64,000 nt of DNA, taken from positions 804 to 64,803 of the forward strand of contig CAZUCA010000009.1 in the NCBI GenBank assembly GCA_964619125.1. The letters are read 5' to 3'. This document shows, one piece after another, positions 19,590 to 63,511 of the stretch; within the stretch, counting starts at the first letter, position 1; every line of letters begins with the position of its first letter. The notes beneath the pieces were generated by a model. It saw nothing but the letters and a program-made list of their open reading frames with translations. It did no database searches and had not been told where the DNA came from. This stretch comes from an uncultured Owenweeksia sp. (lineage in GTDB: Bacteria; Bacteroidota; Bacteroidia; Flavobacteriales; Schleiferiaceae). The position numbers and the translations under genes are program-made.

Positions 19590-20069
19590 ATGAAGAAAAT
19601 AGTAATGTTATTAGCCTTGGTTGGAATTACCATGGCTTGCAACAATCAACCAGCCACCGACACCATCGAGGAAAAAGAGGAGAGCAGTGCCCTGAAAGCG
19701 ATGAAGGAGGAGATTATGAGCATTCACGATACCGCAATGCTAAGAATGACTACCTCTAAACGCCTGATGGCCGAACTTAAGGAAGCCTGGCAGACTGAAG
19801 TTGACTCTATGCCCTATCAGCAGGCCTATCGCAACTTACGACAGGCCAATGACGATATGATGGAGTGGATGCGCAACTTTGAATTACCGGAGGGCGATGA
19901 TGTAAAGGACGAAGAGCTGGAGGCTTACCTGCAGGAGGAACGCCGTGCCATTCAGGCGGTGGATCAAAATCTGAAGAAGGCGATTGAAGATGGGCAGGAA
20001 CTGGTAAAAATGGAAAATGCTGAGGCTGAGGAAACAGCCACAGAAGGCCACGAGGGGCACCAGCACTAA
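19590..20069 (+). CDS. Helical Met/His-rich lipoprotein, hypothetical
   Basis: Lipobox ITMAC; IMSIHDTAM and DDMMEWM motifs; C-terminal GHEGHQH. Confidence 0.7.
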   Translation: MKKIVMLLALVGITMACNNQPATDTIEEKEESSALKAMKEEIMSIHDTAMLRMTTSKRLMAELKEAWQTEVDSMPYQQAYRNLRQANDDMMEWMRNFELPEGDDVKDEELEAYLQEERRAIQAVDQNLKKAIEDGQELVKMENAEAEETATEGHEGHQH

Positions 20070-20115
20070 AAACGCCAGCTAAGCAGCATTGCAGTGCCAA
20101 GGGCGGGGTTGATGC

Positions 20116-20655
20116 TCAGCCCTTGCGCTGTTTATAAATAGGAACGGTAGAACAAGCCTCCCCAAACATGATACTTTTAGCCAGCGGCCGCAGCTTGCCT
20201 ACCAAACTCACATAGGCCTGGGGTGGTATCGGCAGGCTTCCACATCCCTTTATGATTAATCTTTGGCCCTCGTATTGGCTGAGGTCGACCCTGGCAATGG
20301 CTTCGTCAATCAGCAGGCTTTCCAGTCTCTCCGGGCTGCCATACACCACCTTTTTAGCAAAGGGTTGTAGTTCCACCGCCAGCAGCATATAGGCCCACTG
20401 AGGAATGATGGCGTCTTCCGAGCAGTCCAGCGACACGAAACAATCCTGGTACTGGCTCCAGTCGTGCTGCTTTACACTGGCGCGAAAATCCTTTTCGCGC
20501 AGTATTACTCCTTCAAAGAGCCAGGGGGCAATGTCGAGGTGGCGCCGCTCACCCCGGGGGTAGTAATCTTCCAGCGACAGGGTAATAAGGCCGCTGTTGG
20601 CCACCTTATTGGGGATCAGCTCTTCGCCGTTATCGATAGGGGGAATATTACTCAT
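20116..20655 (-). CDS. DUF2480 family protein
   Basis: NKVANSGLITLSLEDYYP, DAIIPQWAYML, IKGCG, MFGEACSTVP; last gene of the suf operon. Confidence 0.85.
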   Translation of the reverse strand: MSNIPPIDNGEELIPNKVANSGLITLSLEDYYPRGERRHLDIAPWLFEGVILREKDFRASVKQHDWSQYQDCFVSLDCSEDAIIPQWAYMLLAVELQPFAKKVVYGSPERLESLLIDEAIARVDLSQYEGQRLIIKGCGSLPIPPQAYVSLVGKLRPLAKSIMFGEACSTVPIYKQRKG

Positions 20656-20694
20656 TGCGATTTCAGGTTTCAGTGCAAAATATAGGGTCGGGAT

Positions 20695-21015
20695 TTACAG
20701 GAAGCCCAGCTCGAGTTTTGCTTCTTCGCTCATCATCTCCTTGTCCCAGGGGGGATCAAAGGTGAGTTCTACATCTACATCCTTTACATCTTTTACGCTG
20801 AGCGCGCGCTCACGCACTTCCTCGGGCAGTGATTCCGCTACCGGGCAGTTGGGCGATGTAAGTGTCATCAGGATTTTCACGTCGAGATCGGTGCTTACCT
20901 GCACATCGTAAATCAATCCCAGCTCATAAATATTTACCGGGATTTCGGGGTCATATATACTGCGGAGAACATCTACCACCTGTTCCCCCAGGGCTTGTAA
21001 TTCTGCGTCTGTCAT
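20695..21015 (-). CDS. sufT: DUF59/SufT Fe-S assembly protein
   Basis: DPEIPVNIYELGLIYDV, MTLTSPNCP, FDPPW. Confidence 0.9.
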   Translation of the reverse strand: MTDAELQALGEQVVDVLRSIYDPEIPVNIYELGLIYDVQVSTDLDVKILMTLTSPNCPVAESLPEEVRERALSVKDVKDVDVELTFDPPWDKEMMSEEAKLELGFL

Positions 21016-21022
21016 TTCTTTA

Positions 21023-21043
21023 GTTCAAAGTTCAAGGTTCAAG
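21023..21043 (+). repeat. Heptamer array GTTCAAA-GTTCAAG-GTTCAAG
   Basis: Read directly; same unit as the arms flanking the four-helix-bundle gene. Confidence 0.75.
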
Positions 21044-21089
21044 CTTTGGCATACAACTTCCGCCAGGCCTGTTAACTTTATCATCCATA

Positions 21090-21506
21090 TTACCTGGCCT
21101 GCATGGCCAGGGCGTAGTATTTCATTTGTTTTACCATGCTGGCCAGGCCGTTGGCCCGGGTAGGGCTAAGGTGTTCTTTCAAACCTATCTGATCGATAAA
21201 GCTCATGTCAGCTGCAACGATGTCTTTAGGTTTCTGGCCGCTCAGTACTCTTATCATCAGGGCGATCAGACCCTTGGTAAGAATGGCATCACTATCAGCG
21301 GTATACAGTACTTTTTCACCGTCATTCTCGGCGTGCAGCCACACCTGGCTCTGGCAACCTTTAATCAGGTTTTCCTCCTTTTTGTACTGTTCGTCAATAA
21401 GGGGCAAATCCTTACCCAGCTCTATCAGGTATTCATACTTCTGCATCCAGTCGTCAAACATGCTAAACTCGTCTACGATGTCTTGCTGAATCTCTGCTAT
21501 CTTCAT
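21090..21506 (-). CDS. sufE: SufE sulfur acceptor
   Basis: IKGCQSQVWL, ADSDA, LSPTRANGL. Start at ATG 21506. Confidence 0.93.
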   Translation of the reverse strand: MKIAEIQQDIVDEFSMFDDWMQKYEYLIELGKDLPLIDEQYKKEENLIKGCQSQVWLHAENDGEKVLYTADSDAILTKGLIALMIRVLSGQKPKDIVAADMSFIDQIGLKEHLSPTRANGLASMVKQMKYYALAMQAR

Positions 21507-21568
21507 GCTATTCAATTCGAATATTGCTGGCGGTGGTTAAATTGCCTTGCTGAGCCCTGGCATCAGCA

Positions 21569-22810
21569 TTACCCCAGCATTTGTTCTACTTTTTTTAAGC
21601 CGTCAACCAGGCGGTCAATTTCTTCCCTGCTATTGTAAAAAGCAAAGCTGGCCCGCACGGTACCGGGTATGCCAAAGCGTTCCATAATAGGTTGGGTACA
21701 GTGGTGACCGGTGCGCACGGCTATACCCAGTTTATCCAAAATCATTCCGGCATCGTAGGGGTGAATATCGCCCAGCAAAAAGCTGATCACGCTGGCCTTA
21801 TCGGCGGCGGTACCCACGATGCGCATATTATCAAATTCCAGCAAGCGCTCAGTGCCATACTTCAGCAGCTCGTGCTCATAGGCGGCAATATTATCCAGAC
21901 CCAGCTGGTTGAGGTATTCGATAGCTGTACCCAGTACTATACCCCCGGCAATATTTGGGGTGCCGGCTTCAAATTTATGGGGCAGATCGGCGTAGGTAGT
22001 CTTTTCAAAAGTCACCGTTTTGATCATTTCACCACCACCCTGATAGGGAGGCAGCTCCTCCAGCAGTTTTTCCTTGCCATAGAGGATGCCCGTACCGGTA
22101 GGTCCAAAGGCCTTGTGTCCGCTGAACACATAAAAATCGGCATTGAGATCCTGTACATCCACTTTCATATGGGGAATGGCCTGGGCGCCATCAATAAGCA
22201 CTAGCGCTCCCACCGCATGGGCTTGGGCTACCATTTCCTTTACGGGGTTTATAGTTCCCAAGGCATTAGAAACGTGGTTAAAGGCCACCACTTTGGTTTT
22301 TTCATTCAGGAGCTTGCTATACTCCTCTTGTACCAGTTCGCCGGCGTCATTGATGGGAATTATGCGCAAGCTGGCGCCCGTCCTTTCGCAGAGCATCTGC
22401 CAGGGCACAATATTGCTGTGATGTTCCAGGGCTGAAATAATCACTTCATCACCGGCTTTTACCATTCCCTGGGCCAGGCCGGCGGTTACGGTGTTGATGC
22501 CATCGGTGGTGCCTTTGGTGAAGAGCACCTCATGGATATACTCCGCATTAATATGTTTCCGTACTATTTCACGGCTTTTTTCGTAGGCATCGGTGGCCTG
22601 CTGGCTGAGGGTGTGTACGCCGCGATGGATATTGCTGTTGTAGCTTCCGTAATACTTACTGAGGGCGTTAATAACCACCTGCGGCTTTTGGGCAGTGGCG
22701 GCATTATCAAAATACACCAGGGGTTGACCATTTAGCTGCTGATGAAGGATAGGGAAGTCCTTCCGAATAGCTTCAATATCCCATACTGCCTGCTTCACTT
22801 CCGTCATCAT
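21569..22810 (-). CDS. sufS: SufS cysteine desulfurase
   Basis: YFDNAAT, FSGHK (PLP lysine), RTGHHC, EAGTPNI. Start at ATG 22810 or 22807. Confidence 0.95.
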   Translation of the reverse strand: MMTEVKQAVWDIEAIRKDFPILHQQLNGQPLVYFDNAATAQKPQVVINALSKYYGSYNSNIHRGVHTLSQQATDAYEKSREIVRKHINAEYIHEVLFTKGTTDGINTVTAGLAQGMVKAGDEVIISALEHHSNIVPWQMLCERTGASLRIIPINDAGELVQEEYSKLLNEKTKVVAFNHVSNALGTINPVKEMVAQAHAVGALVLIDGAQAIPHMKVDVQDLNADFYVFSGHKAFGPTGTGILYGKEKLLEELPPYQGGGEMIKTVTFEKTTYADLPHKFEAGTPNIAGGIVLGTAIEYLNQLGLDNIAAYEHELLKYGTERLLEFDNMRIVGTAADKASVISFLLGDIHPYDAGMILDKLGIAVRTGHHCTQPIMERFGIPGTVRASFAFYNSREEIDRLVDGLKKVEQMLG

Positions 22811-22815
22811 TTCAC

Positions 22816-23514
22816 TTATTTTCCAATCAGTTTTTTGGTACCAAGCCATAGCTTGCGAAACAAGCCATTGGGGTTTTCGTACATGTGCATGGTGGTGTGG
22901 TGGCGCAGCATGCTGCGGGTGTTGTAAAACTCGCGGAAGTGCATGCCGTCGCGATCGTCATGCCCCACCTTTTGAAACATGGCCATATTGCGGTTAGCTA
23001 TACTCACCTGGCGATAATCTTTGCGGTTTTTGCGGATAAACTGCAACACCAGTTCAGTACTGCGCATCCAGGTGTCGTGAAAGAGCAGGTATCCTTCCTC
23101 CGCAACCAGAAAATCGGCGTAATAAAAGTCTACAAAAATGCCGTCAAACTTGTGATCACCATCGATAAAGATAAAGTCAAACTGTCTTTTATCCTTTACC
23201 ATCTGTGGCAGCACGTTATGCGAAAAGTCGCGGATAAGGGTAAGCTTGTTCCCGTATCCCAGCTTATCAATATTATGCACCCCCAGGTTGTCGTAATGTT
23301 CCTGAAAGGGATCAATAGCCACATGTGGCCCTCCGGTGGCAGCCATTATATGCGAGGCGGAACGACCGTAGGCAAAGCCTATTTCGAGAGTGCTTTTTAG
23401 GCCTTTTTCACGGATAAAGTCGAATATGGTTTTGGCCTCCTCAGGCTTTACCGGGGTGGTGCTGTTTTCACCCGGCACCTCCAGGGCATCATTGATCGCT
23501 TGCAAATCTTTCAT
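22816..23514 (-). CDS. Class I SAM-dependent methyltransferase (Methyltransf_24-like) inserted between sufD and sufS
   Basis: TLEIGFAYGRS motif I, FDFIFIDGDH, LLFHDT. Confidence 0.85.
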   Translation of the reverse strand: MKDLQAINDALEVPGENSTTPVKPEEAKTIFDFIREKGLKSTLEIGFAYGRSASHIMAATGGPHVAIDPFQEHYDNLGVHNIDKLGYGNKLTLIRDFSHNVLPQMVKDKRQFDFIFIDGDHKFDGIFVDFYYADFLVAEEGYLLFHDTWMRSTELVLQFIRKNRKDYRQVSIANRNMAMFQKVGHDDRDGMHFREFYNTRSMLRHHTTMHMYENPNGLFRKLWLGTKKLIGK

Positions 23515-23528
23515 GATAGGCGAACCTC

Positions 23529-24848
23529 CTAAAGTTCAAAATCCAGGTTTACATTCAGTTTCTGGGCAATCTGCCGGTTGAGCTTTTTGCGCAGCTCGGC
23601 GATTTTCACATTGCGCAGGCCGTCATTGGCAAAGGCATACAACAAAAGGGCCTGGGCTTCCTTTTTGGGAATGCCACGTGCCTGCATATAAAACATGGCA
23701 TCCTCTTCCAACTGACCTATGGTACAGCCGTGTGAGCATTGCACATCGTCGGCATAAATCTCCAGCTGCGGCTTGGTATCTACCGAAGCCTTGTCGGTGA
23801 GCAATACGTTGTTGTTTTGCTGAAAGGCATTGGTCTTCTGAGCGTGGGGGTGCACCATCACTTTGCCGTTGAACACACCGTGAGCATTGCCATCGAGAAT
23901 GGTTTTATAAAGCTCATTACTATAGCAGTTGGCCGGCTTGTGGTCGGCCAGGGTGTGGTGATCCACCGTTTGACCATCACCAATTATGGTGATGCCATCC
24001 ATAAAGGTTTCGGTATGCTCTTCCTTTAAAAAGAAGTTGAGGTTATTGCGGATGAACTTGTTGCCAAAGGAAAAGGTGCCTACCGATACATAGCTACCGC
24101 CAAATTGCTGCACCGAAGTGTTGTCAATCAGCGAAGCCTCATGGTTGTCATTCTGAATTTTGTAGTAATTCAGGCGGGCGTTGCGCTCGGCAAATACCTC
24201 GGTGGCGCTGTTGGTAAGTACCGGCATGGCACTGAGTGACTGATGGCGCTCCACCAGGGTTACCTCGGCATTTTCTTCCACTACCACCAGGTTGCGGGGC
24301 TGAAACATGGCTTCGTGCTCCTGTTCAGTGGTAAAGAAGATAATTTCCACCGGCTTTTCCACCACCTGATTTTTGCGAATGCGGATAAAAGCGCCCTCGC
24401 GTGCAAAGGCGGTATTGATAGCGGCCAGGGATTCATTTTGCGGCAAAGCCTTGTTGAAGTACTTTTCGGCCACGTCCGGAAAGCGGTTCAGCATGGCGCT
24501 GAAGGTGCAGATGTCAAATTTCTCGTGGGTGGTTTCGCTCAGCCAGGAGCTGAAGGCACCATCTACGAACACCAGCTTATAGGTGTCTACATCATTGAGA
24601 AAATAGCGCTTTACATCCTTGTAGTCGATGCCGTGCTCACCGTGGTGAAAAATGCGGTAATCGTGCTTGAGAATAGGCTTGAGATTGGTGTATTTCCACT
24701 CCTCGTCCCGCTTGCTGGGGAAGCCCATTTTTTCGAAGGTCTTAAAAGCTTCCTGCCGCACCCGGTGTACCGGCGTTTTGGCCTGGCCGTTAAGCTCGTT
24801 CTCAAAAACGATAAAGGATGATTCTAATTTATCTTTAAGTTGATCCAC
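23529..24848 (-). CDS. sufD: SufD Fe-S assembly protein
   Basis: EEWKYT, KPQLEIYADDVQCSHG, YMQARGI. GTG start. Confidence 0.95.
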   Translation of the reverse strand: MDQLKDKLESSFIVFENELNGQAKTPVHRVRQEAFKTFEKMGFPSKRDEEWKYTNLKPILKHDYRIFHHGEHGIDYKDVKRYFLNDVDTYKLVFVDGAFSSWLSETTHEKFDICTFSAMLNRFPDVAEKYFNKALPQNESLAAINTAFAREGAFIRIRKNQVVEKPVEIIFFTTEQEHEAMFQPRNLVVVEENAEVTLVERHQSLSAMPVLTNSATEVFAERNARLNYYKIQNDNHEASLIDNTSVQQFGGSYVSVGTFSFGNKFIRNNLNFFLKEEHTETFMDGITIIGDGQTVDHHTLADHKPANCYSNELYKTILDGNAHGVFNGKVMVHPHAQKTNAFQQNNNVLLTDKASVDTKPQLEIYADDVQCSHGCTIGQLEEDAMFYMQARGIPKKEAQALLLYAFANDGLRNVKIAELRKKLNRQIAQKLNVNLDFEL

Positions 24849-24871
24849 TTCAGCTTAAAATTTTAAGTGAT

Positions 24872-25627
24872 TTAAAGGGCGCTGGCGTCTTCCTTCAGCC
24901 AGTCGTAACCTTTTTCTTCCAGTTCCAGGGCCAGGCTCTTATCGCCTGACTTCACAATCCTGCCATTTTGCAGCACGTGCACATAATCAGGGGTAATATA
25001 GTTGAGCAGGCGCTGGTAGTGGGTAATAAGCAATACCGCATTGTTCTTGGTTTTGAGCTTATTCACCCCATTGGCTACAATGCGCAGGGCGTCGATGTCG
25101 AGACCGGAGTCGGTTTCGTCAAGAATGGCCAGTTTGGGTTCCAGCATCGCCATCTGGAAGATTTCGTTGCGCTTTTTCTCGCCTCCTGAAAATCCTTCAT
25201 TCAGCGAGCGGCTAAGAAAAGACTTGTCCATTTCCAACAGGCTCATCTTCTCGCGCATCTTCTTCAGCATCTCATTGGCCTTCATGGGCTCCATCCCTTG
25301 CGCCTTACGGGTTTCGTTAATGGCGGTTTTCAGGAAGTTGGTCACCGTAACCCCGGGAATCTCCACCGGGTACTGGAAGGAAAGGAAAATACCCTTATGA
25401 GCACGCTCATCCGGCTCGAGGTCGGACAGGTCCTCACCTTCAAAATCCATATGGCCCTGGGTGATGTCATAGTCTTCGCGCCCGGCAATTACAGATGACA
25501 GGGTACTCTTACCCGATCCATTGGGCCCCATTATAGCGTGCACTTCACCCGGCTTGATCTCCAGGTCAATTCCTTTCAAAATTTCGTTACCGTCGATCCC
25601 GGCATGCAGGTTTGAGATTTTTAACAT
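24872..25627 (-). CDS. sufC: SufC ABC ATPase
   Basis: [31 protein letters not shown]. Start at ATG 25627. Confidence 0.96.
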
Positions 25628-25632
25628 TCTTT

Positions 25633-26113
25633 GGTTCAATGTTTAATGTTCAATGTTTAAAGTGAACTATCATTGCTGTAATCGGCAGAAGGCTCCATAA
25701 ATTTCCATCCCTTCTGATCAGATTGACTCAGATAGTTCATCAGCGTGCTAATTCCCCTGCCTAGATTTTCGCAGGCGGTACGCTGGCTATTTAGTTCTTC
25801 TTCATTAATATATCCCCTGTCGTACATCCGGTACAACTGGGAGCGAAACTCTCCGGCCGAGGCCTTGGCGACCGAAAGAAATTGAATGAACTCCTTATTA
25901 CCGTTGCGCTCAAAGCCCTCAGCAATATTGTCCATGGCAGAGCCGCTTGATGCATCTGCCTGGTTCTTCAGCTTAAAGTCAAATTTCAGCTCGGTGGCTA
26001 GTACAACAGTTTGAAACCATCTGCAAATCTCCCTGGCCTGTTGCCAGATTCTGAGATCCTCAAATCGTTCTACTGATGCCATACCTTGAGCTTTGAACTT
26101 TAAACCTTGAACC
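25633..26113 (-). mobile_element. Putative IVS-like cassette: four-helix-bundle gene bounded by heptamer-built inverted repeats
   Basis: 25633-25662 GGTTCAATGTTTAATGTTCAATGTTTAAAG versus the reverse complement of 26084-26113 GGTTCAAGGTTTAAAGTTCAAAGCTCAAGG: 24/30 identical. No transposase or target duplication seen, so mobility is inferred. Confidence 0.5.
25657..26082 (-). CDS. Four-helix-bundle protein (23S rRNA intervening-sequence protein family)
   Basis: RFEDLRIWQ, Q...S..S..NIAEGFER, EFIQFLSVAKASAGEFRSQL. Start at ATG 26082. Confidence 0.92.
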   Translation of the reverse strand: MASVERFEDLRIWQQAREICRWFQTVVLATELKFDFKLKNQADASSGSAMDNIAEGFERNGNKEFIQFLSVAKASAGEFRSQLYRMYDRGYINEEELNSQRTACENLGRGISTLMNYLSQSDQKGWKFMEPSADYSNDSSL

Positions 26114-26120
26114 ACTTACT

Positions 26121-27563
26121 CTATCCTACCGATCCCTCTAAACTGATGGCCAATAGCTTTTGGGCTTCCACCGCAAATTCCATTGGCAGCTGGTTAAGAA
26201 CGTCCTTGCAGTATCCGTTTACGATCAGGGCAATGGCTTCCTCCTCGCCGATACCGCGTTGATTGCAGTAAAAAATCTGGTCTTCGCCAATTTTGCTGGT
26301 GGTGGCTTCGTGCTCCACCATGGCTGATTTGTTTTTGGTTTCGATGTAGGGAAAGGTGTGGGAGCCGCAGCTGCTGCCCATCAGCAGGGAGTCGCACTGC
26401 GAGAAGTTGCGCGCATTTTCGGCGCGGGGACCAATCCTTACCAGGCCACGGTAGCTACCGTTACTCTTACCGGCGCAGATACCCTTACTAATAATGGTAC
26501 TCTTGGTGTTCTTGCCCAGGTGAATCATTTTAGTACCGGTGTCGGCCTGCTGGTAATTGTTGGTTACAGCCACCGAATAAAACTCACCGATGGAGTTTTC
26601 ACCTTTCAGAATGCAGCTGGGGTATTTCCAGGTTACCGCGGAGCCGGTTTCCACCTGGGTCCAGCTGATCTTGGCATTGCGCTCGCAAATACCGCGCTTG
26701 GTTACGAAGTTGAAAACCCCGCCCTTGCCGTTTTTATCACCGGGATACCAGTTTTGTACGGTTGAATACTTGATTTCGGCATCGTCGAGGGCTACCAGCT
26801 CCACCACGGCAGCGTGCAGTTGATTTTCGTCGCGGGTAGGGGCGGTACAACCTTCCAGGTAGCTTACGTAGCTGCCCTCATCGGCCACCACCAGGGTGCG
26901 CTCAAACTGGCCGGTTCCGGCTTCGTTAATACGGAAATAGGTGCTGAGCTCCATCGGGCAGCGTACCCCTTTTGGGATGTAGCAAAAAGAACCATCGGTA
27001 AATACCGCCGAGTTGAGGGCCGCGTAGTAATTATCAGTTTTGGGAACCACTGTACCCAGGTACTTGCGCACCAGCTCCGGGTGTTCCTGAATGGCTTCTG
27101 AGATAGAGCAGAAAATAATGCCTTTCTCGGCCAGGGCCTTCTTAAAAGTGGTTTTCACTGAAACCGAGTCTACCACCACGTCCATAGCCACGCCGGTAAG
27201 TCGCTTTTGCTCTTCCACCGAAATTCCAAGTTTTTTGAAAGTGTCCAGCAGCTCGGGATCCACCTCATCGAGGCTGTCGAGCTGTTTCTTTTGCTTGGGA
27301 GCGGAGTAATAGGAGATGGCCTGCAGATCGGGCTCGGGGTAGGTGACATTAGGCCACTTGGGCTCGGTCATTTTCTGAAACTGTCGAAAGGCCTCCAGTC
27401 GCCATTCAGTGAGCCACTCCGGTTCATTCTTCTTGGCCGAGATAAAACGGATGGTCTCCTCATTTAGCCCGGGAGGGGCTTTGTCTGCTTCAATATTGGT
27501 GTAGAAGCCATATTTATATTCCGATCCGGTTACTTCTTCCAGTAACTGCTCTTCGCTCTTCAT
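26121..27563 (-). CDS. sufB: SufB Fe-S assembly protein
   Basis: [34 protein letters not shown]-like, HEATTSKI. Confidence 0.97.
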
Positions 27564-27580
27564 AAAGTCGTATTAGGGAA

Positions 27581-27910
27581 TTATACCGCAAAGCTCTCAC
27601 CACAGCCACAGGTGCGGGAAGCATTGGGGTTATTAAAACTAAATCCTTTGCCATTGAGGCCTCCCTGGTATTCGAGGGTGGTCCCTACCAGATACAGAAA
27701 GCTGCGCTTATCCACTAAAATGCGTACACCGCTATCCTCAAACATCTTATCGGTCTCCTTCATATTGGTATCCACGTCGAGATTGTACGACAAGCCGCTA
27801 CAGCCTCCGCTGGTCACGCCTACACGGATGTACGACTCAGCGAGCTGATGGCCTTCCTCTTGCAGCAGGGCCTCCAGTTTCTTTCGCGCTGATTCAGAAA
27901 CCTTTATCAT
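27581..27910 (-). CDS. sufA: HesB/IscA/SufA A-type Fe-S carrier
   Basis: GGCSGLSY and C-terminal TCGCGESF. Confidence 0.93.
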   Translation of the reverse strand: MIKVSESARKKLEALLQEEGHQLAESYIRVGVTSGGCSGLSYNLDVDTNMKETDKMFEDSGVRILVDKRSFLYLVGTTLEYQGGLNGKGFSFNNPNASRTCGCGESFAV

Positions 27911-27913
27911 CTT

Positions 27914-27945
27914 ATTTGGAATTAATTTAAATTAATGCAAAGGTA
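27914..27945 (-). promoter_or_regulatory. suf operon -7 element plus an overlapping Fur-like or palindromic operator
   Basis: TACCTTTG at 27938-27945; ATTTGGAAT-T-AATTTAAAT at 27914-27932; perfect palindrome ATTAATTTAAATTAAT at 27921-27936. Confidence 0.5.
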
Positions 27946-28101
27946 TGAAAGAAAGAGCATCCTGAAAATCCGGAGAAAAATATCCTGATATACCTATAGC
28001 AGCCCTTTATAAGTTCGCTGTCTTCCCCTTAAAAAACTACGGGTACAACGGCTCGGGGAATAGTTATATTTTTGGCTAGACCAACCCCATAACCTATAAT
28101 T

Positions 28102-31100
28102 TTGAAGGCGATTGGCGCTCAAATTTTTTTAGCTGTACTGCTGCTGGCCGGTTGGGGCCTCAGCGCCCAGCCCTGTAAGCCCCAGGTAAACTGGAGCGAT
28201 ACCATTGCCTTCTGCCAGGGTAATGCCCTTACTCTTTCGGCCTATAATCCCAATTGCAACTATCTCTGGAATACGGGCGCCTCCACCGCCAGCATCACCA
28301 TTACCACCTCCGGTACTTATTGGGTGTCGGTAACCAATAACTGTGGCAATACCCGTGATACCGTGTATGTGCACGTACAGCAGCCCCTCTTTCCCAACCT
28401 GGGGAATGACCGGGTGCTTTGCAGTGGCAGCAACCCTATTCTTAGCGTAGCCAGCCTGATTGAAACCAGCTACCTGTGGCAGGACGGGAGTACAAACAAT
28501 ACCTGCCCGGTGACTGCTTCAGGGCAATACCACGTTGCGGTTACTAATTCATGTGGCACTTTCAGGGATACAGTAAATATCAGCTACCTTCCCACACCGG
28601 CAGTTGATTTAGGCCCTGATGTTAATTACTGTAGTCCCTTCGCTAAAACACTAAGTGTAAACCCGGCCCTGGCGGGTAATGTAAGCTGGAGCAACGGTTC
28701 TAATGCCACTGCCATTACGGTAAGCAGCCCCGGCATCTATTGGGTTCAGGCCAGCAACAACTGCGGCAGCGATCGCGATACCGTGCAAATAAGCTACCAG
28801 CAAGGAAATCTTCTTGACATCGGTGATACAGCCTATAAGTGCATAAACGGTTTTGCCACCCTCCATAGTAATATTAGTGGGGGTAGTTATCAATGGAGCA
28901 CGGGTGCCAGTACCGCCAGTATTTCGGTAGGCCAAACCGGCACCTACTGGTTAAAATATACGGACTCATGCGGCGTCTATTACGATTCGGTAGAGGTGGT
29001 GGTGGCGCCTGCCGCTGTGGCCGACCTGGGCCCTGACCGCCAGATTTGTAACAACCGGGGCCTGATCTTACAGGCCGGCAATCCGGGCAGTTCCTACCAG
29101 TGGAGCAATGGCAGTAGCGGGCCATTTATCACCGTTAGCGACAGTGGCTTTGTGTGGCTGGGAGTAAATAATGGCTGTGGCTGGGACTATGATACTATTG
29201 AGATTAGTCTCAAGCCTTTTCCCGATCCCGATATTGACGACACGGTATACTACTGCCTGGGCCAGAGTGTGCAGGTGGATGCAGGTGACTGGGGCCCGCA
29301 GAGCAGCTACCTTTGGAGCAATGGTTCCACTTCGCGGCGCCGCAATTTCAGTAGCGATGGCAGTCATTGGGTGCGGGTGGCCAATGACTGTGACACAGTG
29401 GTCAAAAACTTTTATACCAAAGGAGTTGCCAATAACTACTCGCTGGATCTGGGTAATGACACGGTGGTTTGCGCTACCGAGTTGCAGTTAAAGGCCGGCC
29501 TTCCTGCCAATGTATTTGACTTCTTGTGGAGCAACGGTTCCGACAAAAACAACATTAAGGTCACCGCCTCGGGCAGCTATTGGCTGGAGGCCAGCGGGCC
29601 ATGCGGCACCCTTTACGACACTATTGAGATAATTATTCAAAGAGCGCCGGGCATTATTCCCAACCCTAATCTCAGTTTATGCCAGGGAGACAGCCTTATC
29701 ATTTCCGCTCCCTATGTTGACTTCACCCATTACCTCTGGAGTACCGGTGATACCACCCACGAAATCACGGTTAAACAAAGTGGGTTTTACTACCTCATGA
29801 GCTATAATACCTGCGACACCCTGTTTGATACGGTGCAGGTTACAATGGCCAACGCCATTAATGTGGACCTGGGCCCTGACACCAGTTTTTGTGAACCTTA
29901 TATCTATTACCTCGACATGAGCAATAAGGGGGCCGACTCCACCCGCTGGAGCACCGGTTCACGCAATGGCGGTCTGCCGGTATCGAAAAGTGGCACCTAT
30001 TGGGTTACTCTTTACAATGCTTGTGGTGCCTTTAGCGATACGGTTAACATCACCGTAAACCCCTTGCCCAAGCCCAAACTAAAAAGTAAGGTGATTTGCG
30101 CTGGCAGTAGTGTAACCCTTGATGCGGGCCAACCCAATGTGCAGTCGTACCAGTGGAACACCGGCGCCACCGGTGCCAGCATTGTGGCGAGCCAGGATGG
30201 TTGGTACGTAGTGTCGATGTCCAATGGCTGTGGCACCGTAAAAGACTCCTGCTATCTAAGGGTTGATCAACCTTTGCAGCCCATTAATTTGGGTAACGAC
30301 ACTATCTTTTGCCAGGGCACATTGTTGCTCGATCCGGGTTATGTGGCCCATGCCAATTACCGCTGGCAGAATGGTTCCACCAGCCAAAAGTTATTGGTGA
30401 CCAAAAGCGGAGGCTATAAGGTAACTGTAAGCAACGTCTGCAATACCGTGAGTGATAGCATTTATATCCTCATCACCGGGCCGCCTAAGCTGGTACTGGG
30501 TACTACCATTAAATTTTGTGGTGGCAGCACCCTTTATCTTAATGCCCAAAATCCCGGCAGCAGTTATTTGTGGAATACCGGTGATACCACTCAGAGCATC
30601 CCCATCAGCACCTCGGGCCGCTATTGGGTAACCATGGAAAATCCCTGCGGGCGACTTACCGACACGGTAGATGTGGAGGTTGACTTTCCCTTGCTCAATC
30701 TTGACCTGGGCCCTGACACCCTGATATGCCAGGGAATATTTCTCACCCTTGAAACCCAGTATAGCGGCGTGGATTATTTGTGGAATACCGGGGCTAAAAC
30801 TGAGAAAATCACGGTAGATACCACCGGCTTATATTGGGTGAGGGTGAAAAACACCTGTGGCGAATGGTACGATTCCATCTTTGTTAAGGTTCAGGGCATG
30901 CCGGTGTTTGACCTGGGAGGGACCGGCTATCTCTGTAATATCGATGGCAAACTCACCATTGAAGGTCCGCCGGGCATGAAAAGTTACCACTGGAGTACCG
31001 GGCAGCAGGGTCGAAAAATCACGGTGGAGGATCCGGGCGACTTCTGGCTGGTGGTGTCCAATGAGTGTTTTCAATTTGCCGACACCCTTACGGTAATAGG

Positions 31101-63254: not shown

Positions 63255-63345
63255 GTTAAAGGTTTGAAGCGTTGCCGCCTATAAGGGGGCTAACTTTAAA
63301 ACCTTGAACCCTGTCTGCCGACAGGCAGGCTTACAACTTTCAACC
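63255..63345 (+). repeat. Heptamer-type arrays in the tRNA leader
   Basis: GTTAAAGGTTTGAAG (63255-63269) can pair with CTTTAAAACCTTGAAC (63294-63309); TTACAACTTTCAACC follows. Confidence 0.6.
63310..63329 (+). repeat. REP-like 20-bp palindrome CCTGTCTGCCGACAGGCAGG
   Basis: 8-bp stem with one G-U and a CCGA loop; resembles a dispersed Bacteroidota palindrome family I recall; single copy in this window. Confidence 0.65.
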
Positions 63346-63350
63346 ACCGC

Positions 63351-63432
63351 GCCCAGGTGGCGGAATTGGTAGACGCGTTGGTCTCAAACACCAATATCTT
63401 CGGATGTACCGGTTCGACTCCGGTCCTGGGCA
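63351..63432 (+). tRNA. trnL: tRNA-Leu (CAA)
   Basis: Acceptor GCCCAGG/CCTGGGC, D-loop GGAATTGGTAGAC, anticodon stem TTGGT/ACCAA with loop CTCAAAC, long variable arm, TTCGACT T-loop; discriminator A; CCA not encoded. Confidence 0.97.
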
Positions 63433-63435
63433 CTG

Positions 63436-63467: not shown

Positions 63468-63474
63468 GTTTTAA

Positions 63475-63511
63475 GGCTCTAAGGTTTTAAGGTTTTAAAG
63501 TTTCAAGGTTG
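63475..63511 (+). repeat. 8-mer tandem array GGCTCTAA-GGTTTTAA-GGTTTTAA-AGTTTCAA-GGTTG
   Basis: Read directly; 63491-63502 is the exact reverse complement of 63292-63303. Confidence 0.6.

Follow-up and report, generated by a model that had tools for sequence, protein, structure and literature searches.

Inverted heptamer arrays around a PF05635 gene in the sufB-sufC gap of an uncultured Owenweeksia sp.: a probable gene-bearing form of a dispersed family of intercistronic hairpins

Introduction

A 64,000-nucleotide stretch of DNA from an uncultured Owenweeksia sp. (Bacteroidota; GenBank assembly GCA_964619125.1, contig CAZUCA010000009.1, positions 804 to 64,803; hereafter the window) carries an insert between the sufB and sufC genes of a suf operon, in which a small four-helix-bundle gene is enclosed by an inverted repeat built of heptamers. 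The question raised by this locus is what kind of element the insert represents, and why its ends are composed of seven-nucleotide units. An earlier note, based on the letters of the window, had likened the insert to the intervening sequences (IVSs) of 23S rRNA, whose origin and mobility have been open since 1990-93. The encoded protein belongs to PF05635/TIGR02436, a very large family (more than 8000 clusters were matched in one search) with no function known apart from that of Avd in diversity-generating retroelements (DGRs).

We report that hairpins made of heptamer arrays constitute a dispersed family, which occupies intercistronic gaps in many bacterial phyla, and that the insert is probably the gene-bearing form of this family. 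Its membership in the class of cassettes described below is almost certain. It is also rather probable that the insert represents an IVS-type cassette, i.e., a PF05635 gene bounded by inverted heptamer arrays and lodged, co-oriented, in the sufB-sufC gap. The build of the IVS is itself known; the new elements are IVS-type cassettes outside rRNA and the accompanying population of gene-less hairpins. In a literature search that reached few subscription journals, so that an earlier account is possible, neither operon-borne PF05635 cassettes with flanking repeats nor hairpins made of heptamer arrays were found to have been described.

Anatomy of the insert and its protein

The suf operon runs on the minus strand in the order sufA, sufB, a 141-aa open reading frame (ORF), sufC, sufD, an O-methyltransferase-like ORF, sufS, sufE, an FeS_assembly_P gene and DUF2480. 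The 141-aa ORF (25657..26082 including the stop codon; ATG at 26082, stop codon TAA at 25659-25657) is preceded by sufB (26121..27563; stop codon TAG at 26123-26121; Pfam SUFBD in relatives) and followed by sufC (24872..25627; start taken at ATG 25627), all on the minus strand. In the mRNA sense, the 5' arm (26083..26114, minus strand) comprises approximately 4.4 heptamers of the form RGTTYAA and ends 1-2 nt before the cassette ATG. Its 30-nt core, GGTTCAAGGTTTAAAGTTCAAAGCTCAAGG (26113-26084, mRNA strand), is separated from the sufB stop codon by six nucleotides (AGTAAG). The 3' arm (25632..25663, minus strand) is the reverse complement of the 5' arm at 26/32 positions, starts 2-3 nt past the cassette stop codon and ends 4 nt before the sufC ATG; its 30-nt core, CTTTAAACATTGAACATTAAACATTGAACC (25662-25633, mRNA strand), is followed by CAAAGA and then by that ATG. 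Both arms, 30-32 nt long and inverted, are composed of GTTYAAR heptamers, and a period of 7 was returned for each of them by Tandem Repeats Finder.

The cores are complementary at 24/30 positions, with mismatches at positions 8, 15, 22, 24, 26 and 29, four of the six being spaced by 7 nt; the count of 24/30 and the 7-nt spacing, already given in the earlier note, were reproduced to the base upon recomputation. A repeat finder extended the arms to 32 nt with 81% complementarity. No stronger inverted repeat was found in the window, where the 15 remaining pairs are 71-78% complementary. The predicted energy of the arm-arm RNA duplex was -22.7 kcal/mol, compared with a mean of -7.9 and a best value of -18.1 for 30 shuffles, and the heptamer-array motif was found at five sites in the window versus 0.02 expected. 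The coding strand of the cassette contained no terminator-like site and no T-run. No Rfam 15 family was assigned to the arms in the window region 20000-29000 or in eight related loci, and no rRNA was detected in 20000-29000. The absence of a transposase and of a target duplication, likewise proposed from the letters, was upheld: the neighbouring genes are those of the suf operon, and the sequences on either side of the insert, AGTAAG and CAAAGA, do not duplicate each other. The observation was thus confirmed as genuine and not an artefact.

The encoded protein scored 91.1 bits against PF05635 (cut-off 33.8), its sole Pfam match, and 85.9 bits against TIGR02436 (cut-off 24). The AlphaFold2 model of the monomer (pLDDT 88.9) consisted of four long helices. 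Foldseek aligned this model to the homologues 2GSC (TM 0.87-0.91) and 2RLD (TM 0.73-0.84), both with five chains in the crystal, as well as to Avd (4DWL; TM 0.86 normalised to the target, probability 1.0), at a sequence identity of approximately 9%. The suggested structural relationship of the family to DGR Avd was therefore borne out for the predicted fold. Residues S48, N52 and E55 (in GSAMDNIAEGF) of the S-x3-N-x2-E motif were invariant in 32 relatives, the invariant stretches of the protein being S-x3-NIAEG and E-x-R-S-Q; a passage of PMC3936711 gives the motif as GxxRxxxSxxxNxxE (Lin 2006, Zhang 2013). The Xanthomonas protein is cited as a homopentamer in PMC4990558. The four-helix-bundle genes of two relatives syntenic with the window, L081 (6001) and L082 (6016), apparently start with GTG and TTG, whereas the window gene starts with ATG.

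Heptamer arms in relatives across phyla

Two samples of related loci were compared. The first comprised the 80 closest relatives in species-representative genomes (50-60% identical, all Bacteroidota). The second, seeded with the Xanthomonas protein of PDB 2GSC, comprised 76 relatives from at least 12 other phyla, including Proteobacteria, Acidobacteriota, Planctomycetota, Gemmatimonadota, Firmicutes, the candidate phyla radiation (CPR) and Verrucomicrobiota. Most of the Bacteroidota relatives were flanked by inverted tandem arrays (GTTTAAA, GTTTCAR, GTTTCGG, TTTGAAAA, an 11-mer and others), and the flanking inverted repeats outperformed 20 shuffles in 56/76 relatives from the other phyla. The inverted flanks that the earlier note had proposed to look for around other family members are thus widespread. 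Arms in the other phyla were also tandem heptamers, made of lineage-specific words such as AGTGGAC, TAGTGGT, GGCGGCG, AATGAGT and TCAGTAG. A period of 7 was found in 38/44 array calls in Bacteroidota and 53/60 in the other phyla, versus 0/138 and 2/142 for control regions located 500 nt away. Inverted heptamer arrays are therefore a hallmark of the PF05635 family across phyla.

The two arms of a locus belong together. In 77 loci, the complementarity of a locus's own arms reached a median score of 13, whereas pairing arms of different loci gave 9 and shuffling them gave 7. When the 5' heptamer was compared with the reverse-complemented 3' heptamer, the two differed by 1.44 positions if taken from one locus and by 3.34 if taken from different loci. 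The arm duplexes of 72 suf-resident cassettes had a median energy of -26.4 kcal/mol versus -10 for shuffled arms, and 66/72 were better than all of 30 shuffles. Mismatches between arms clustered in one heptamer phase in both samples (140 versus 117.6±4.1 and 94 versus 77.2±3.4; 0/1000 simulations reached either value). Because of this concentration, the periodic 1x1 loops described for the window stem can be regarded as a family trait.

The heptamer word itself is not universal. In Bacteroidota, the consensus GTTY[AC]An was significant (5.9 bits versus 3.6). A consensus across phyla was rejected, being not significant at 3.4 bits versus 2.9 (maximum 3.36) for shuffled heptamers. Heptamer sequences differed even between cassettes of one genome, and protein identity correlated weakly with heptamer similarity (rho -0.21), giving little sign of co-evolution between protein and heptamer.

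Two features of individual loci were recorded alongside. Very long pure heptamer arrays of 10-18 units were present at L251 (6263-6335), L199 (4260-4383), L202 (4209-4337) and L179 (1584-1714), with the words GTTCAAT, AGCTAGA, CAGTGGT and GTGACAC; such arrays suggest expansion by slippage. In cassettes of the F. johnsoniae clade (L083-L092), the 5' arm is separated from the ATG by a spacer of approximately 50 nt, and TAnnTTTG occurs about 35-50 nt upstream of the four-helix-bundle ATG (examples TACATTTG and TATATTTG). This sequence resembles the Bacteroidota -7 promoter box, and the spacer may contain the cassette's own promoter.

Hairpins and arrays without the gene

The same heptamers also occur in the window away from the cassette. 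A gene-less hairpin of this heptamer family (AAAGTTAAAGGTTTGAAG, a 22-nt loop and AACTTTAAAACCTTGAACC; 63255..63311, plus strand; -24.6 kcal/mol) lies 40 nt upstream of tRNA-Leu(CAA) (63351-63433), and a solo array of related 7/8-mers (GTTTTAAG...GTTTCAAGGTT; 63468..63510, plus strand) is located directly past the terminator hairpin of that tRNA. The hairpin and the array on either side of tRNA-Leu show that this genome also has heptamer elements outside the suf operon. Within the operon, a solo array of the 3' type (CTTGAAC CTTGAAC TTTGAAC on the mRNA strand; 21022..21042, minus strand) without a partner arm follows sufE and ends 6 nt before the FeS_assembly_P ATG. At the matching position, L081 and L082 hold a degenerate gene-less hairpin, which makes the solo array of the window a probable remnant of either a hairpin or a cassette.

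At several suf junctions of other genomes, both arms enclose a loop of 8-100 nt with no gene. For example, L042 and L074 hold a gene-less hairpin at sufC|sufD, the junction at which the gene is present in F. turcicum and F. zhoui. In 1.19 Mb of sequence around four-helix-bundle genes, 167/252 period-7 arrays adjoined a four-helix-bundle ORF, and the other 85 were often inverted pairs. Among the diverse-phyla loci, arrays away from such an ORF used the heptamer of the local cassette (distance 1.0 versus 2.97 to the cassettes of other loci). Gene-less hairpins that share the heptamer of the local cassette fit the idea, put forward in the earlier note, of an element that spreads through its repeat arms.

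When the genome collection was scanned without bias for the pattern (GTTYMAN)x3GTT, 151 arrays were obtained at 120 loci, only six of the 151 adjoining a PF05635-like ORF. Short-loop hairpins outnumbered cassette-sized pairs (27 versus 5), and 62 arrays had no partner at the threshold used. With respect to the neighbouring genes, 25/27 hairpins were located between co-directional genes, 12-29 nt from each, and none between convergent genes. Solo AAC-type arrays preceded the next start codon by a median of 33 nt, and GTT-type arrays followed the previous stop codon at a median distance of 39 nt.

Lake metagenomes gave a similar picture for L101, a Flavobacterium metagenome-assembled genome (MAG) from Lake Mendota with a cassette at sufC|sufD. 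Its arms were several-fold deeper in word depth than the flanks and continued into at least six other sequences, and some contigs held the same arms around loops of 6-33 nt; the arm sequences are multi-copy in this lake population. 'Joints' of approximately 440 nt were considered as deletions at the L101 locus and rejected; they were other gene-less hairpins with the same arms, and their sides measured no more than 22-25 nt. Cassettes are thus rarer than the gene-less hairpins that carry their heptamers, and the arrays form a larger population of such intercistronic hairpins.

Site, age and relocation of cassettes

Inside suf operons, 52 of the 80 closest relatives were found, at the junctions sufA|sufB, sufB|sufC and sufC|sufD and after sufS, all 52 oriented as the operon. 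Further suf junctions were held by more divergent PF05635 genes with 8-mer arms. A single suf operon of Flavobacterium turcicum has cassettes at three junctions, and Zunongwangia profunda carries the cassette gene between sufA and sufB. Non-suf hosts included murD|ftsW, lpd|E1 dehydrogenase, miaB, thrB|thrC, an ABC permease|ATPase pair and MFP|AcrB. At non-suf loci, the neighbours were co-directional upstream in 26/26 and downstream in 26/28 cases, and in the diverse-phyla set in 64/76 and 59/77, respectively. No cassette resided in rRNA among 20 diverse family loci tested (0/20). The usual home of a cassette is thus an intercistronic gap of an essential operon rather than rRNA, and the rRNA location looks like the exception for the family.

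The placement within the gap is constant. In 72 cassettes, the 5' arm started a median of 2 nt past the upstream stop codon and the 3' arm ended a median of 6 nt before the downstream ATG; in suf-resident cassettes, the 3' arm begins at the cassette stop codon. The empty junctions of other genomes were 1-26 nt long. The inserted segment is bounded on both sides by its arms.

Proteins at least 70% identical were encoded at junctions as different as sufC|sufD, sufB|sufC and PRiA4|NA37, and also downstream of miaB, and for only 57/79 cassettes did the nearest relative occupy the same junction. From this comparison of proteins and sites, cassettes must have relocated between junctions and operons over evolutionary time, and the unit is probably mobile now or was formerly. 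Pseudogene copies were found at L056/L086, L065 and L071. Presence varied between junctions and operons among relatives, as the earlier note had asked of orthologous sites. Fixed presence of the gene at one site, which the same note had named as evidence against a spreading element, was found at sufB|sufC in the window's own lineage and gave way to variable presence across the wider family.

In that lineage, L081 and L082 carry the cassette at the same sufB|sufC site. The cassette proteins are 59-62% identical to that of the window, in comparison to 91-92% for SufB, 85-86% for SufC and 76-78% for SufD. Because the site is shared and the cassette protein has diverged so much further than SufB, the cassette of this lineage is judged to be old and fast-evolving; its ORF has stayed intact across saturated synonymous divergence (dS). 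Among closely related Flavobacterium orthologues, dN/dS was 0.06-0.11, which indicates that the cassette ORF is under purifying selection.

The junctions also house other genes. In Flavobacteriaceae, sufB|sufC may hold a DUF2683-YoeB toxin-antitoxin pair, an FMN reductase or small lipoprotein-like ORFs, all without heptamer arms. Such inserts were seen at L078, L030, L043 and L057 (sufB|sufC), at L063, L037 and L075, and at L010, L048 and elsewhere. Additional genes seem to be readily accommodated at the suf junctions. PF05635 genes inside cas, suf or other operons should not be taken as functional partners of those operons.

Comparison with known systems

The IVS of Coxiella burnetii is 428 nt long, resides in helix 45 of 23S rRNA and contains an S23p ORF within a 28-bp terminal stem that is cut in its middle by RNase III; three tandem heptamers (GACAGAT) precede the ATG, their copy number varying among strains (Warrier et al. 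2016, PMC4990558). The mobile-element hypothesis of Ralph & McClelland (1993) for IVSs is quoted in the same article. The window element shares with the 23S rRNA IVSs of Leptospira, Coxiella and other bacteria a PF05635 'S23p' protein in the loop and the sense orientation in a highly transcribed host transcript. With the Coxiella IVS it further shares a similar size (428-444 nt versus 481 nt), terminal inverted repeats forming a stem of approximately 28-32 bp and tandem heptamers in the 5' terminal region, where the copy number is variable in Coxiella. The kinship with 23S rRNA intervening sequences is thus stronger than had been stated in the earlier note, as the Coxiella IVS combines the S23p ORF, the stem and the heptamers (PMC4990558). 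The differences concern the host, which here is a protein-coding operon (sufB|sufC) instead of helix 25 or 45, the excision by RNase III, which is proven there and putative here, and the ORF, which is decaying and probably untranslated in Coxiella, whereas that of the window and its relatives is under purifying selection. The window element is therefore a variant of the IVS and not a strict member, as it lacks the rRNA location.

The closest functional analogy is provided by REP/REPIN elements, which reportedly occur with a RAYT gene. In both systems, a single gene lies between inverted copies of a short palindromic repeat; the repeat recurs many times as gene-less hairpins (compare the hairpin 63255-63311 and the solo array 21022-21042 of the window), differs between lineages and agrees with the flanks of the local gene; and the gene is vertically inherited under purifying selection. 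The RAYT protein is an HUH/Y1 (IS200/IS605-like) transposase, unlike the four-helix bundle of approximately 130 aa found here. The repeats here are tandem heptamer arrays, and their hairpins are flanked by co-directional genes (25/27) instead of marking the ends of convergent ones.

Avd (PDB 4DWL; DGR ribonucleoprotein 8UB7/8UB8) shares the fold and works on structured RNA. The suf neighbours of the window include no reverse transcriptase gene, template/variable repeats not having been searched for, and a DGR reading was rejected because that gene is lacking. Miniature inverted-repeat transposable elements (MITEs) are similarly short and bounded by inverted repeats, their gene-less copies outnumber gene-bearing ones, and their presence varies between genomes. 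The cassettes differ in having neither a transposase nor a target-site duplication, and in heptamer ends that vary even within one genome. PF05635 genes have also been seen inside cas operons (18 cases, e.g., between cmr3 and cmr2) and were read as a functional association with CRISPR-Cas, in a passage that leaves flanking repeats unmentioned (Zhang, Doak & Ye 2013, PMC3936711). As described in that passage, they are wedged between co-directional operon genes, as are the suf cassettes, which suggests the same intra-operon lodging behaviour.

Transcription and level of action

No RNA run holding the window locus was found, and only one metagenome, of sediment DNA, contained 19% of the window's words. 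L101 was present in 24 lake metatranscriptomes. A 2294-nt RNA contig of this locus extends from sufC through the 5' arm, ORF and 3' arm into the beginning of sufD, and other L101 RNA runs cover both junctions at similar depth. Because the RNA contigs run unbroken through both arms, the L101 cassette is co-transcribed with the suf genes and uncut molecules exist. By analogy, we infer that the window cassette is transcribed with its operon. A terminator or attenuator reading was ruled out by the lack of a T-run and by the read-through transcripts of L101.

Under the IVS-type reading, which we favour, the arms would pair in the transcript into an imperfect stem of approximately 26-32 bp with a 1x1 mismatch about every 7 bp, in analogy with the 23S IVSs of Coxiella and Leptospira. 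The stem would loop the ORF out and bring the sufB stop codon and the sufC start codon to within approximately 10 nt of each other, and this looping-out would make the insertion tolerable. By the same analogy, the stem would be a likely substrate of RNase III. In addition, the protein might act on the heptamer arrays, in RNA or DNA, and thereby maintain or spread the element. We regard the case for pairing of the arms in RNA with a functional consequence, argued by analogy, as evenly balanced, and cleavage of the arms by RNase III, which draws on the same comparison, as somewhat doubtful.

Several results weigh against this reading. Apart from the missing RNA run for the window, the L101 transcripts pass uncut through both arms, although assembled contigs cannot show RNA ends. 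The window arms pair in the minimum-free-energy fold and not in the centroid, i.e., the long-range stem is marginal. Among transition-type arm mismatches, 86 G·U were counted versus 120 C·A in Bacteroidota and 50 versus 71 in the other phyla. In a pool of approximately 190 loci, the counts were 136 versus 191; if anything, wobble pairing is favoured on the antisense strand, where most cases stem from an A of the 5' arm that faces a C of the 3' arm. As there is no sense-strand G·U excess, these counts lend no support to selection at the RNA level. A plain RNA stem would also leave unexplained the tandem heptamers, the strict period of 7 and the free seventh position, nor does it need the polarity, which is fixed: on either strand, the 5' arm is poor in C and the 3' arm poor in G. 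The strict period with its free seventh position and this polarity suggest a reader, be it a protein or the copying mechanism, that recognises 6-nt words spaced by 7 nt. The window protein is acidic (pI 4.96), in contrast to Avd, which is basic and binds nucleic acid. As for mobility, neither a transposase nor a target duplication was seen at the window cassette, there was no sign of a recent insertion, and four lake DNA metagenomes contained no excised or empty-site allele at L101. Finally, long vertical retention at one site together with purifying selection fits a function useful to the host as well as a selfish one.

An alternative that we consider possible but on the whole unlikely moves the action to DNA. 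The arms would be 7-bp iterons, double- or single-stranded, read by a pentamer of the four-helix-bundle protein, and RNA pairing would be incidental; the protein would bind both ends of its own cassette and the gene-less hairpins. In trans, it would see to their maintenance, copying or mobilisation, much like RAYT in the REP/REPIN system, or else it would serve as an autoregulator. A precedent for such reading is offered by the omega repressor of pSM19035, which binds 7-bp heptad iterons in direct and inverted order. A DNA-level role would accommodate the conservation of period 7 across phyla with a lineage-specific word and a free seventh position, the covariation of the two arms and the absent sense-strand G·U excess, with a tendency that is the opposite if anything. 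It would equally suit the common heptamer of cassette and hairpins in one genome, the purifying selection on the ORF and the near-constant flanking of the gene by arrays, most of which lack the gene, like autonomous and non-autonomous elements. However, we know of no catalytic motif in the four-helix fold, the window protein had no match in the PADLOC and PHROGs libraries, and both its acidity and the weak correlation between protein identity and heptamer similarity count against this alternative. A purely DNA-level role is further opposed by the confinement of the hairpins almost exclusively to transcribed intercistronic gaps, which implies a constraint at the RNA level, and by the rRNA IVS relatives, whose arms demonstrably act as an RNA stem (PMC4990558).

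A host-adapted device is less likely still. Here the stem would mask the A/C-rich leader of the downstream gene, with the four-helix-bundle gene as a passenger in the loop, and a ribosome terminating upstream (stop codon 0-7 nt before the stem) would melt the outer half of the stem, release the leader and so couple the translation of sufC to that of sufB. Bacteroidota are said to initiate on unstructured A-rich leaders without Shine-Dalgarno (SD) pairing, which is in line with this proposal, as are the constant geometry of the 72 cassettes (medians of 2 nt and 6 nt), the location of gene-less hairpins likewise between co-directional and never convergent genes, and the solo AAC-type arrays just before start codons, including that at 21022-21042. 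The same geometry, however, follows trivially from insertion into junctions of 1-30 nt; arrays occur in SD-using phyla too; and the heptamer period, the lineage-specific words and the tie to one protein family are left unexplained. Two trivial explanations, low-complexity repeats that adjoin a small gene by chance and a conventional terminator or attenuator, would suit the AT-rich arms and the centroid fold that drops the long-range stem. They are extremely improbable given that no inverted repeat of the window surpasses the arms, that the motif occurs at five sites versus 0.02 expected, that it recurs at hundreds of loci with covariation between the arms, and that there is neither a T-run nor a terminator call, L101 transcripts reading through.

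The favoured reading of the window insert as an IVS-type cassette can be extended into a broader proposal, to which we assign a low likelihood, that PF05635 proteins are the trans-acting factors of an unrecognised pan-bacterial repeat system, either mobile or maintained, in which an Avd-like pentamer would read the heptamers and promote their copying. Hairpins of inverted, lineage-specific heptamer arrays would colonise intercistronic gaps and occasionally rRNA, where they would constitute the IVS. Each subunit of the pentamer would read a 6-nt word plus one spacer nucleotide, and copying might proceed through the stem-loop RNA released by RNase III, as Avd serves DGR retrohoming. If this were true, the classic 23S IVSs, the 'cas-associated' IVP genes and the suf cassettes of Bacteroidota would be one phenomenon. 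Independently of this proposal, the heptamer arrays of the family, the intercistronic home of its cassettes and the gene-less hairpins make a testable system of a 'hypothetical protein', accessible through heptamer binding, RNase III cutting and the translational coupling or insulation of neighbouring genes.

Other observations

Two scans of viral contigs for carriage of the cassette by phages returned essentially nothing. The sole Rfam match was a Flavo-1 RNA (RF01705, 74 bits) at L042 (5649-5726, minus strand), downstream of sufD and unrelated to the heptamer arms. The first gene of the window operon, sufA, is located at 27910-27581 (minus strand). The O-methyltransferase-like ORF (Methyltransf_24/Methyltransf_3; 22816-23514, minus strand) lies between sufD and sufS and overlaps the start of sufS by 34 nt. 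In L081 and L082, this ORF is missing from the sufD-sufS junction, and sufS is instead followed by a different methyltransferase.

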